The position numbers and the translations under genes were made by a program. A DNA stretch of 64,000 nt. It comes from Patescibacteria group bacterium (GTDB lineage Bacteria > Patescibacteriota > Patescibacteriia > UBA9934). The notes below the pieces were generated by a model. It had not been told where the DNA came from. It saw only the letters and a list, made by a program, of their open reading frames with translations, and ran no database searches. Shown piece by piece: positions 49,253-50,884 of this stretch. The stretch lies in contig JAGORL010000004.1 of NCBI GenBank assembly GCA_018062825.1, positions 7,409-71,408 on the forward strand, given 5' to 3'. The stretch's first letter is position 1, and each line of letters begins with the position of its first letter.

Positions 49253-50884
49253 TCAATCGAGCCGCACATACAAGTCGCAGCCATCACTGTACGGCGCGTC
49301 CCAAGCGATGGGCGTATACCCCGCGCCCTGGAACGTCACCCTCGCCTCCCCCTGCAAGATACCGGGCGGAAACGGGGCATGACACGACCAACTCTCGCTT
49401 GCTCCGTCGATAAACGCCACACTGAAGTGAAACGCATCACCGTAGCAAGCATCAAACTCGTACTCGAGGATGTCATCATTGATCTCGTAATCAAGAACAT
49501 CCACCCACCGCGTCGACTGACCAAAAAGACGATGGTCACCCGACAAAACGAGCTCGTCAACAACGCCCCACGGCGACCGAAATGTCAGTTCCGCTCGTCC
49601 GCACAGCATCGTTTCTTCCTCAGTATCGACCGGCGAGCTCTCCTGCCACTGCGGCAAGTCGTAGCATTCACGCAAGTCATCGCGGCGCAGACAGTAGGAA
49701 CCGGTGGCGCACGACCCGTAATCAATGACCCCAGAACGCATCTCTTCCTCGGAAAGCTCAAAGACCATTCGGTCCTCAAACCCCAAGGCAAGAAGGGTAT
49801 CCCAGGACTCAATCGGAAGCCCAACCCCGTTCTGCGCCACGTACACATCACTTTCAGAAACGCCGGAGACAAGCGTTCCGTCTCGAAACGTCGCCGTCCC
49901 AACGTGCGGAGCCGGGATAATGGCAACATACGGCACGTCATCAACACTCGTGGCGTGAATGCCGTAGCTTGCAAGCACCATCGCCCAACCATCTCCATTC
50001 ACGAGGTACGCCGCATCATCAGCGGTGCCGACCTCGTTAACAACGAGCCAGATGCCTTGATCGTTACGAGCCGCATACACTCGACCACCTTCCGCGATCG
50101 CGTCACCAGGGTCATAGCATTCAAGCTCTTCTTCACTCGCAAGCGCGAGCTCACGAAAGCTATATCCCCTATCAAAGAAAGCAGCCTCGTTCACAAACGG
50201 ACGCAGGTCGCCATCTTCAACAAGGTACACCGTGTTCTCCCGAGGACTCTTAAGAAGCGTCCCAGATGGGTGCCCCCGCACAAGCGCAAGATCGCTCTCA
50301 TAGTAGTATCCGCCCATAAGCGAGCAGATCATGTCGATCGCCTGCGTCTCCTTGACCCCGCCACCGTGCCGGTGACGAAACGCGAGCCCATCAATCGACT
50401 GTCCGTAGGTCGCCGGCTCGGCCGCTTCCCCACGATGTCGACCAATGTGCACATGATCCCCGCTACTGTGACCGGTCGACCCCTCAAAACCGAGAAGTTG
50501 ACCCGAGGCCACCTCACTGCCGGAATCTACGAACACCTCCTTCAAGTGCCCGAGCACGATGTACGTGCCGTCGTGAAGATCGATGTTCGCATGCACCCCA
50601 AACCCCGCATCCCCAGAGTCATGCACATACACCTGTCCGCTGACGGGTGCATACACGTACTCATCAGAGCTGTTCGGCGTATCAAAGTCGATGTCGTAAC
50701 GCGTACTCGCCGCGTCGTGCGAGTACTCACCAAAAGCGCCCTGCGTGCAAAGTGCGTCGTACCCCGGCGAAAACGGCAGGTCGATCGTGACAAGATCACG
50801 ACCACCACCCGTAAACCAGGCCTTACACCCCGAAAGCATGATGAGCATGCACACCAGGATGTACCGCATGAACTGCGTGTACAT
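49253..50884 (-). CDS. M23 family metallopeptidase lipoprotein, high-GC gene D (likely horizontally acquired)
   Basis: Lipobox LSGC. M23/LytM motifs YVYAPVSGQV and LGFEGSTGHSSGDHVHIGRH. About 57% GC. SD AGGGAGGG upstream. The overlapping plus-strand 506-aa ORF is Arg-rich antisense noise. Confidence 0.8.
   Translation of the reverse strand: MYTQFMRYILVCMLIMLSGCKAWFTGGGRDLVTIDLPFSPGYDALCTQGAFGEYSHDAASTRYDIDFDTPNSSDEYVYAPVSGQVYVHDSGDAGFGVHANIDLHDGTYIVLGHLKEVFVDSGSEVASGQLLGFEGSTGHSSGDHVHIGRHRGEAAEPATYGQSIDGLAFRHRHGGGVKETQAIDMICSLMGGYYYESDLALVRGHPSGTLLKSPRENTVYLVEDGDLRPFVNEAAFFDRGYSFRELALASEEELECYDPGDAIAEGGRVYAARNDQGIWLVVNEVGTADDAAYLVNGDGWAMVLASYGIHATSVDDVPYVAIIPAPHVGTATFRDGTLVSGVSESDVYVAQNGVGLPIESWDTLLALGFEDRMVFELSEEEMRSGVIDYGSCATGSYCLRRDDLRECYDLPQWQESSPVDTEEETMLCGRAELTFRSPWGVVDELVLSGDHRLFGQSTRWVDVLDYEINDDILEYEFDACYGDAFHFSVAFIDGASESWSCHAPFPPGILQGEARVTFQGAGYTPIAWDAPYSDGCDLYVRLD

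Follow-up and report, generated by a model that had tools for sequence, protein, structure and literature searches.

A conserved M23 peptidase lipoprotein beside type IV secretion genes in Candidatus Uhrbacteria

The peptidoglycan hydrolases of monoderm type IV secretion systems (T4SSs), such as PrgK of pCF10, TraG of pIP501 and Orf14 of Tn916, are anchored to the envelope and encoded together with VirB6-, VirB3- and VirB4-like genes (PMC12857230, PMC12102498). Here we describe a gene that resembles them in both respects. It encodes a 543-residue M23 peptidase lipoprotein and lies at 49253..50884 (minus strand) of a 64,000-nt stretch from a Patescibacteria group bacterium (assembly GCA_018062825.1, contig JAGORL010000004.1, positions 7,409 to 71,408; "the window", to which coordinates refer unless another locus is named). 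The product is certainly a native, conserved and apparently active M23 lipoprotein with probable wall-binding repeats, and it heads a chromosomal T4SS gene cluster of monoderm type in about 30 orthologous loci. Our favoured reading, which we hold at slightly better than even, is that it serves as a dedicated wall-remodelling enzyme of the surrounding envelope-spanning apparatus and acts on the cell's own wall.

The window protein departs from the known hydrolases in several ways. PrgK, TraG, Orf14 and their like depend on a domain that acts as a glycosidase, either SLT or muramidase, in most cases together with CHAP or NlpC/P60, whereas an intact M23 domain is the sole catalytic domain of the window protein. 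PrgK also has a LytM (M23) domain, but a regulatory one (PMC12857230). Further differences from this group are that the window protein has a lipoprotein signal and EccB-type repeats, and that its gene appears to be transcribed apart from the operon.

Other precedents are found in actinobacteria and within the Patescibacteria. An SLT+M23 hydrolase of Streptomyces (WP_327393814.1, NZ_CP108586.1) adjoins VirB4-like and VirD4 T4SS genes, as the window gene adjoins its own T4SS, and shows 31% identity over residues 7–174. It differs in having an SLT domain and a canonical H-T-G-I-D motif, in lacking repeats and a lipobox, and in being encoded on a plasmid with a coupling protein; the likeness is that of generic M23 domains. 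On this plasmid (Streptomyces sp. NBC_01186; our locus L088) the gene occupies 11404–12471 and is divergent beside genes for a SCO6880-family protein, a VirB4-like ATPase (annotated "type VI secretion protein") and VirD4, so that an M23 domain does occur in an actinobacterial T4SS hydrolase. Ca. Southlakia epibionticum ML1, of the same phylum-level group, encodes two proteins with wall-hydrolase folds (SEML1_0006, SEML1_0007) beside virB4; they are essential by transposon sequencing and belong to a chromosomal T4SS without relaxase (PMC10633639, PMC12102498). This organism falls in class Saccharimonadia, and its proteins are not M23 enzymes but contain two lysozyme-like domains plus a cysteine peptidase, and a Hedgehog/DD-peptidase (M15-like) fold. 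The Streptomyces plasmid hydrolases, the LytM domain of PrgK and the S. epibionticum proteins are thus precedents for peptidase folds beside T4SSs. TagX, which is needed for biogenesis of the Acinetobacter type VI secretion system, is reported to be a peptidase, not a glycosidase, that lets a secretion machine cross the wall (PMC5061870); it differs from the window protein in enzyme family, secretion system and its diderm envelope.

T4SSs of Patescibacteria and the hydrolases of monoderm T4SSs have thus both been described already. A survey of the Patescibacteria systems reports that most classical VirB1 homologues are not linked to virB4 and that other hydrolases may serve (PMC12102498). We found no M23 association in the supplements of that survey and came across no earlier account of M23 lipoproteins with EccB-type repeats as constant companions of the Uhrbacteria T4SS genes. 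The M23 lipoprotein provides a concrete, testable wall-opening candidate for this T4SS, with defined catalytic residues and a putative wall-binding module.

Domains and active site of the M23 lipoprotein

The reading frame predicted from sequence is a real gene, as judged from the open reading frame (ORF) list, its Pfam match, homologues, composition and dN/dS, and it has its own Shine-Dalgarno sequence, GGGAGGG (50888..50894, minus strand), 3 nt 5′ of the ATG. Assignment to peptidase family M23 is by a profile match above threshold and by predicted fold. Residues 65–151 match Pfam Peptidase_M23 (PF01551) with E = 1.7e-13 and 51 bits (cut-off 28.7), and a profile search of the PDB gave Csd1, zoocin A and LytM at E values from 1e-11 to 6e-6. 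NCBIfam yielded weak, sub-threshold matches to MepM, ShyA, Pgp3 and SpoIIQ. In the AlphaFold2 model (pLDDT 87.8), Foldseek matched EnpA, LytM, lysostaphin, Csd1/2, LasA, pseudoalterin and beta-lytic protease with a probability of 1.00, and target-normalised template-modelling (TM) scores against EnpA and LytM were 0.64–0.74. Alignments to LasA, pseudoalterin and beta-lytic protease were longer (186–197 columns) and took in an extra sub-domain at residues 161–197, which indicates that the fold extends to about residue 197 with a LasA-like addition. Residue conservation, the model, Foldseek and profile hidden Markov model (HMM) alignment together delimit the catalytic domain to residues 30–197 (50294..50797, minus strand). 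Its core has a mean identity of 0.59 among 38 distant orthologues.

The residues expected of a working M23 site all appear to be present. In an alignment of 41 orthologues, S55, H56, D66, D68, H98, H113, G135, T137, G138, D143, H144, H146 and H150 are invariant, and eight cysteines are conserved. The HxH motif GSTGHSSGDHVHIG (H144-V-H146) had been correctly recognised in the original prediction; it is invariant among the orthologues and, together with G-H113-L, aligns to the GpHLH and aHL motifs of solved M23 enzymes. The stretch YVYAPVSGQV, proposed as the HxxxD motif, holds no ligand. The first metal motif is more probably S55-H56 ... D66-I-D68, an H-x11-D arrangement with an insertion of 6–7 residues. 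D68 aligns to the Asp of HxxxD in profile alignments to solved M23 enzymes and to the canonical Streptomyces M23 domain, and H56 aligns across a 6-residue insertion to the His of the Streptomyces H-T-G-I-D; it is the sole His available and lies 12 residues before D68. We therefore assign H56, D68 and H146 as putative Zn ligands and H113 and H144 as putative catalytic residues.

Fold and catalytic residues are shared with LytM, EnpA, lysostaphin, LasA, beta-lytic protease and pseudoalterin (HMM E values down to 1e-11). The lysostaphin and LasA type, however, is targeted by SH3b domains and occurs in other genomic contexts, whereas the window protein has EccB-type repeats and a His and Asp 12 residues apart instead of 4. 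LasA itself also has a long His–Asp spacing.

An M23 fold need not be an enzyme, and the protein might be a structural or regulatory subunit in the manner of SpoIIQ, EnvC, NlpD or the LytM domain of PrgK. A weak NCBIfam match to SpoIIQ (E = 8e-4) and the description of the PrgK domain as regulatory (PMC12857230) lend this some colour. Degenerate LytM factors, however, have lost catalytic and ligand residues, and here H56, D68, H113, H144 and H146 are invariant in the 41 orthologues. On this ground we ruled out a degenerate LytM factor; an active enzyme is the reasonable reading, and we consider a non-enzymatic subunit very improbable.

The N-terminus, MYTQFMRYILVCMLIMLSGC, is a signal peptide of residues 1–20 (50825..50884, minus strand; hydrophobic segment 9–27) that closes with the lipobox L-S-G-C at residues 17–20 and fits the pattern [LVI][ASTVI][GAS]C. 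Cys20 is kept in at least 90% of the 41 orthologues, preceded by G or A, in agreement with the lipoprotein assignment made at the outset, and we infer that the protein is lipidated at this residue. The window ORFs scanned gave no matches to the Lgt and Lsp families.

The remaining 346 residues had been taken for one C-terminal domain of 380 residues. In the models they are modular and comprise three repeats (R1, 198–264; R2, 265–324; R3, 325–410), a disordered acidic linker and a beta-sandwich at 428–543. The repeats (residues 198–410; 49655..50293, minus strand) are about 60 residues each with a predicted beta-beta-beta-alpha-beta-alpha pattern, and R1 and R3 are 30% identical (E = 3e-5). Against the PDB, Foldseek matched the repeat region weakly to EccB1 and EccB3 (E = 2e-3, probability 0.93, TM score about 0.2), the likeness being confined to the repeat unit. 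EccB, a core component of mycobacterial type VII secretion, likewise has its repeats outside the membrane, each made of a four-stranded sheet and two helices; unlike the M23 lipoprotein it is a structural subunit, bitopic, whose four repeats surround a core domain, and it lacks a hydrolase domain (PMC4769845). The EccB1 repeats, about 55 residues long, weakly resemble PlyCB, which binds the wall, and have been proposed to bind peptidoglycan (PMC4769845). The secondary-structure pattern of the M23 repeats agrees with this published description, although the M23 lipoprotein itself has no direct Pfam EccB match. Among viral models, single repeats superposed at 1.2–1.4 Å on uncharacterised Streptomyces and Rhodococcus phage proteins (Foldseek).

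A profile of the repeat region recovered 1941 proteins from a library of 1.84 billion, many with 4–16 tandem copies. Ten of these were scanned for domains: three carried Amidase_2 and/or SpoIID, one Glucosaminidase and one CAP. The repeats of one homologous multi-repeat protein (P0082) match Pfam T7SS_ESX1_EccB (PF05108) at E = 4e-10. The repeats are recurrently joined to hydrolases, of four classes in all, and are best explained as a wall-targeting module; the three in the M23 enzyme most likely hold it on the wall. These fusions give comparative support to the proposed peptidoglycan binding by EccB repeats. Across repeat proteins such as P0082, P0159, P0162, P0169, P0176 and P0156, some of them from Ca. 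Wirthbacteria, PA14 also occurs among the fused domains.

The C-terminal beta-sandwich (residues 428–543; 49256..49603, minus strand), delimited by the modelled strands and Foldseek, has a conserved Cys and is C2-like, with weak matches to C2 domains in the PDB (E from 3e-3 to 5e-2). About half of the M23 relatives match residues ~27–407 only and have other modules in place of the sandwich, so the conserved core consists of lipobox, M23 domain and repeats, and the last module is exchangeable.

Descent and base composition of the M23 gene

The M23 gene is vertically inherited and specific to the Ca. Uhrbacteria lineage of the Patescibacteria. A word-indexed search of 5.8 billion proteins returned 72 matches, 71 of them strong (E ≤ 2e-52), mostly full-length and 35–98% identical. 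The few strong homologues that bear a name are titled "Patescibacteria group bacterium" or "Candidatus Uhrbacteria bacterium", and the next match (E = 1.4e-7) was to a protein that joins a generic M23 domain to a secretion tail of Bacteroidota type. In a scan of one genome per species, the family was present in 44 loci, under the titles Ca. Uhrbacteria, Patescibacteria or "uncultured Gammaproteobacteria", the last being third-party metagenome-assembled genomes (MAGs); NCBI taxonomy places Uhrbacteria within the Parcubacteria group of Patescibacteria. MAG contigs labelled "uncultured Gammaproteobacteria bacterium" (L009, L011, L017, L019, L020, L024 and others) carry the complete Uhrbacteria-type M23/T4SS locus, and these labels are very likely wrong. 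Outside the family only the M23 core is matched, at 28–48% identity over 53–143 residues (Bacteroidota, Clostridia, Elusimicrobia, Chloroflexi and two Actinomycetota). Searches of plasmid and phage collections gave nothing beyond generic M23-core matches of at most 38% identity, and an origin from a phage or plasmid was rejected accordingly. The top plasmid matches were Streptomyces M23 proteins.

The composition of the gene had been read as a sign of foreign, host-derived DNA. Its GC content of about 57% (0.574) stands, but the background is not 45%: the window has a GC of 0.489 and its median gene 0.486. Third codon positions account for most of the difference (GC3 0.642; median about 0.45), and GC1 and GC2 are ordinary. 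The excess is not peculiar to the window. Of 32 loci, 30 have an M23 orthologue whose GC3 is higher than the neighbours' median (mean difference +0.175 in GC3 and +0.092 in GC; Wilcoxon p = 2e-9), and this holds across genomes with local GC from 0.41 to 0.61.

Distances tell of a shared history with the T4SS genes. Pairwise M23 and VirB4 distances over 31 loci were correlated (Mantel r = 0.655, reached by none of 2000 permutations), and the window's nearest relatives were identical for all genes compared. Against L005, the closest long relative, dS was 1.16 for M23 and 0.85–1.59 for five flanking genes, and dN/dS was 0.106 for M23, 0.081 for the VirB6-like gene and 0.015 for VirB4; protein identity was 80% for M23 and 98.5% for VirB4. 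With a dS inside the range of its neighbours and a dN/dS of 0.106, the M23 gene is as old as they are and under purifying selection, though less constrained.

Recent acquisition, for example from an actinobacterial host, would account for the high GC and GC3, for the single-gene unit with its own terminator, and for best plasmid matches in Streptomyces (31% identity, residues 7–174). Full-length relatives, however, occur in Patescibacteria only, and the actinobacterial likeness is generic, the proteins there having another architecture (SLT+M23, canonical HTGID). Orthologues in the same place show the GC3 excess too (30 of 32 loci), M23 and its flanking genes have diverged equally in dS, and M23 distances are congruent with those of VirB4. 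Taken together, homologue taxonomy, shared GC3 excess, congruent distances and equal dS mark the gene as native and rule out recent horizontal gene transfer (HGT) from Actinobacteria or a host; we regard a foreign origin as scarcely credible. The original prediction had itself named, as the outcome that would count against it, closest homologues from the same lineage with similar GC, and these are what we found.

Several explanations of the GC excess were considered. Local recombination importing an M23 segment was ruled out for the window/L005 pair by the dS of 1.16, which lies inside 0.85–1.59. Amino-acid composition was ruled out as the source because GC1 and GC2 are ordinary and the excess lies at third and four-fold degenerate sites. 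At four-fold sites, compared with co-oriented operon mates in 29 loci, C was higher (+0.10), as was G (+0.07), at the expense of A and T; with both G and C raised, tRNA-driven codon choice is unlikely. A regional effect was ruled out, since the intergenic stretch 50885–51499 has 45% GC and the intervening genes of L003 are ordinary. Even close relatives have reached saturation at synonymous sites; the GC3 excess is thus no relic, and something must maintain it. Candidates are GC-biased gene conversion and, in stand-alone genes with strong expression, selection at synonymous sites. The window has four genes of high GC3, namely M23, a lipoprotein gene (51500–52246), an NT5C nucleotidase gene (13900–14502) and an ORF at 3923–4681, all of them single-gene units with strong terminators. 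A GC excess of 9 points would pass for a textbook mark of foreign DNA, yet in this gene, which is vertically inherited, it is a conserved trait. When HGT is called from composition in these genomes, orthologues need to be examined as controls.

Gene order, transcription signals and role

About 30 loci share the gene order giant protein, variable stretch, M23, VirB6-like protein, a 575-residue protein (P575), PrgI, TrsD, VirB4, a 187-residue protein (P187) and ComF. The M23–VirB6-like junction is intact at M23 identities of 35–46% in these loci, while the 5′ side is rearranged. Linkage to virB4/virB3/virB6-type genes, one mark of a T4SS-associated peptidoglycan hydrolase, was thus found in about 30 loci, with L012 and L015 as exceptions. 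Pfam and NCBIfam scans revealed no other wall-hydrolase domain in the T4SS operon; M23 is, as had been claimed, the sole recognisable hydrolase candidate in the cluster.

In the role that we favour, the M23 lipoprotein would be exported by Sec, lipidated at Cys20 and thereby anchored in the cytoplasmic membrane, on its outer side. With its EccB-type repeats keeping it on the wall, the enzyme would open the cell's own wall locally by cleaving peptide cross-links, and the T4SS and associated surface structures could then assemble through the wall. The protein would be a functional analogue, not a homologue, of VirB1, PrgK, TraG and CwlT; CwlT, of ICEBs1, is a further peptidoglycan hydrolase of a monoderm T4SS.

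Several points weigh against this role. To our knowledge every characterised T4SS hydrolase has a glycosidase domain, and the M23 lipoprotein has none: no SLT, lysozyme or glucosaminidase domain was detected in it by Pfam, NCBIfam or fold searches. It is therefore not a member of the VirB1 family and an analogue at most.

The transcription signals are a second point. A terminator-like hairpin (49219..49248, minus strand; 13 bp, GC-rich, dG −23 kcal/mol, z = −3.95) with a T-tract follows 6 nt past the M23 stop codon. When hairpins with a T-tract were counted within 40 nt after the stop codon across orthologous loci, M23 had one in 31 of 39 loci. Downstream the counts were 0/30 for the VirB6-like gene, 1/23 for P575, 0/29 for PrgI, 0/31 for TrsD, 3/29 for VirB4 and 7/26 for P187. 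The position of the M23 hairpin is conserved among loci and its sequence is variable. Just past it lies an extended −10 element, TGTTATACT (49200..49208, minus strand), 10 nt ahead of the ATG (49189) at which the VirB6-like gene likely starts, and TGnTATAAT or TGnTATACT stands 8–12 nt before this ATG in about 20 orthologous loci. The longest-ORF start, GTG at 49231, is probably wrong, and the ATG at 49189 is more likely. From these signals M23 appears to be monocistronic, and the T4SS operon to have its own, nearly leaderless promoter. A terminator of its own and a separate operon promoter mean that co-regulation with the T4SS is not implied, and a gene outside the T4SS transcription unit is better called a conserved neighbour than a part of the apparatus. 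A search of the M23 leader against Rfam gave no riboswitch or known RNA at E ≤ 1, and we found no sigma-70 consensus promoter for M23 itself.

The third point is the two exceptions. In L012 and L015 the M23 orthologue is full length, 37–38% identical and about 4 kb downstream of the giant protein, but parA, parB, relA/spoT and topA follow it and no T4SS gene lies within 10 kb. Conserved gene order in small, slowly rearranging genomes can, moreover, outlast a functional link. The predicted T4SS wall hydrolase is thus supported by its position, next to T4SS genes in about 30 loci, and by that only; its apparent transcription as a separate unit and the pair of split loci tell against it.

The same observations suit a general autolysin for growth, turnover or daughter separation, whose T4SS neighbourhood would be inherited gene order. 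The separate terminator and promoter and the separation in L012 and L015 fit such an enzyme. So do MepM and ShyA, active M23 enzymes that serve as growth endopeptidases and to which the weak NCBIfam matches point, and the occurrence of the same repeats on ordinary amidases and glucosaminidases. Against it, about 30 loci keep M23 joined to the VirB6-like gene despite insertions upstream (an RHS cassette in L001, an aminoacyl-tRNA synthetase gene and others in L003), and no division or elongation genes lie nearby. The protein also evolves faster than the locus core (80% against 98.5% for VirB4 to L005), as is more typical of surface or interaction proteins. We consider a general autolysin a serious alternative, though clearly on the less probable side.

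This fast evolution can also be read as that of an enzyme directed outwards, which together with the giant adhesin-like protein and the T4SS would cut the wall of a partner (host) cell at contact, for access or nutrients. Its C-terminal module is variable, M23 stays with the giant surface protein when the cluster splits, and M23 enzymes of the LasA and lysostaphin type are known bacteriolysins. Patescibacteria are thought to be epibionts, and the Saccharibacteria T4SS is essential for growth on the host (PMC10633639, PMC12857230). The conserved lipobox, however, predicts tethering to the producer's own membrane, the source organism has no known host, and substrate specificity is not readable from sequence. 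Moreover, the characterised hydrolases of monoderm T4SSs, as far as we know, act on the donor's own wall. We judge an outward lytic enzyme unlikely. Somewhat less likely again is a wider version, in which giant protein, M23 and T4SS form one contact apparatus, M23, held in place by its EccB-type repeats and variable C-terminal module, breaches the partner wall instead of or besides the cell's own, and the GC3 excess, which outlasts saturation of synonymous sites, reflects unusually frequent recombination, with GC-biased gene conversion, at host-facing genes.

The T4SS operon and its surroundings

All genes of the T4SS operon lie on the minus strand. The VirB6-like gene (46337..49189) encodes a polytopic membrane protein with about eight transmembrane helices in its first 365 residues and a hydrophilic extension of about 600 residues. 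It has no Pfam match and has a syntenic orthologue in about 30 loci; its role is inferred from position and topology. P575 (44588..46315) is a soluble operon protein conserved by synteny. PrgI (VirB3-like; 44117..44560) matches Pfam PF12666 at E = 7.4e-9. The TrsD/TraC-like protein (43414..44148) resembles the VirB4 N-terminus and matches NCBIfam TrsD (E = 2e-7) and VirB4_plasma (E = 6.6e-11), with PF26593 matched in its orthologues. The VirB4-type ATPase (41469..43430) matches NCBIfam conju_CD1110 (E = 1.2e-102; 344.6 bits, cut-off 325) and Pfam P-loop_TraG. P187 (40897..41460), a bitopic protein with one N-terminal transmembrane helix and a terminator hairpin 3′ of its gene, is by its architecture alone a candidate VirB8-like subunit; the assignment is without sequence support, and P187 gave no sequence match to solved structures. 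The cluster ends with a ComF-like protein with a phosphoribosyltransferase domain (40235..40912; Pfam Pribosyltran, E = 1.4e-4).

No relaxase or coupling protein was seen among the scanned window ORFs of at least 150 residues. This fits the published picture of the Patescibacteria T4SSs, which are related to the monoderm (MPF-FATA) systems and are probably not conjugative (PMC12102498). The window has comF, recG and radA near the T4SS, in agreement with the pattern typical of class ABY1 of the Genome Taxonomy Database (GTDB) (PMC12102498).

Upstream of M23, a giant Cys-rich surface protein of 3001 residues (52435..61440, minus strand) has an N-terminal hydrophobic segment and a Pfam CBM_4_9 match (E = 4.8e-8). 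An orthologue lies upstream of M23 in about 20 of the 24 loci with a full flank, and in L012 and L015, where T4SS genes are absent nearby, it still accompanies M23. The giant protein may be the adhesin of the apparatus; adhesins of the PrgB type were not found in the survey of Patescibacteria T4SSs (PMC12102498). Between the giant gene and M23, and convergent with the former, lies the gene of a small lipoprotein (51500..52246, plus strand) with the lipobox LMGC, a D/T/G-rich linker and a GC3 of 0.85–0.90. This protein evolves fast, with patchy identities of 23–42%, but keeps its position and has the highest GC3 in each locus (0.74–0.93). Counterparts with lipobox and high GC3 are found in L001 (746–1630), L002 (8678–9388) and L003 (2215–3009). 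In L001 (an 839-kb contig of GCA_964552565.1) the gene of a 1902-residue SpvB/RHS/TcdB-type toxin and four small ORFs lie between the giant protein and M23, at 2506–9541.

Following the T4SS and comF genes, the window encodes a Fur-family regulator and a ZnuA/ZnuC/ZnuB zinc importer (36136–40225, minus strand), as does L002 (20526–21719). An M23 enzyme needs zinc, and the proximity of znuABC may be coincidence. M23 genes adjoining znuABC are reported from enterobacteria (PMC7705223). Elsewhere in the window, 12 kb from the T4SS operon and adjoining radA and recG, a single ORF (28175–29275, plus strand) joins a T4SS_pilin domain (VirB2-like; residues 84–148, E = 5.6e-9) to a C39-like/C70 papain-fold peptidase domain (residues 191–347, E = 1.7e-9).

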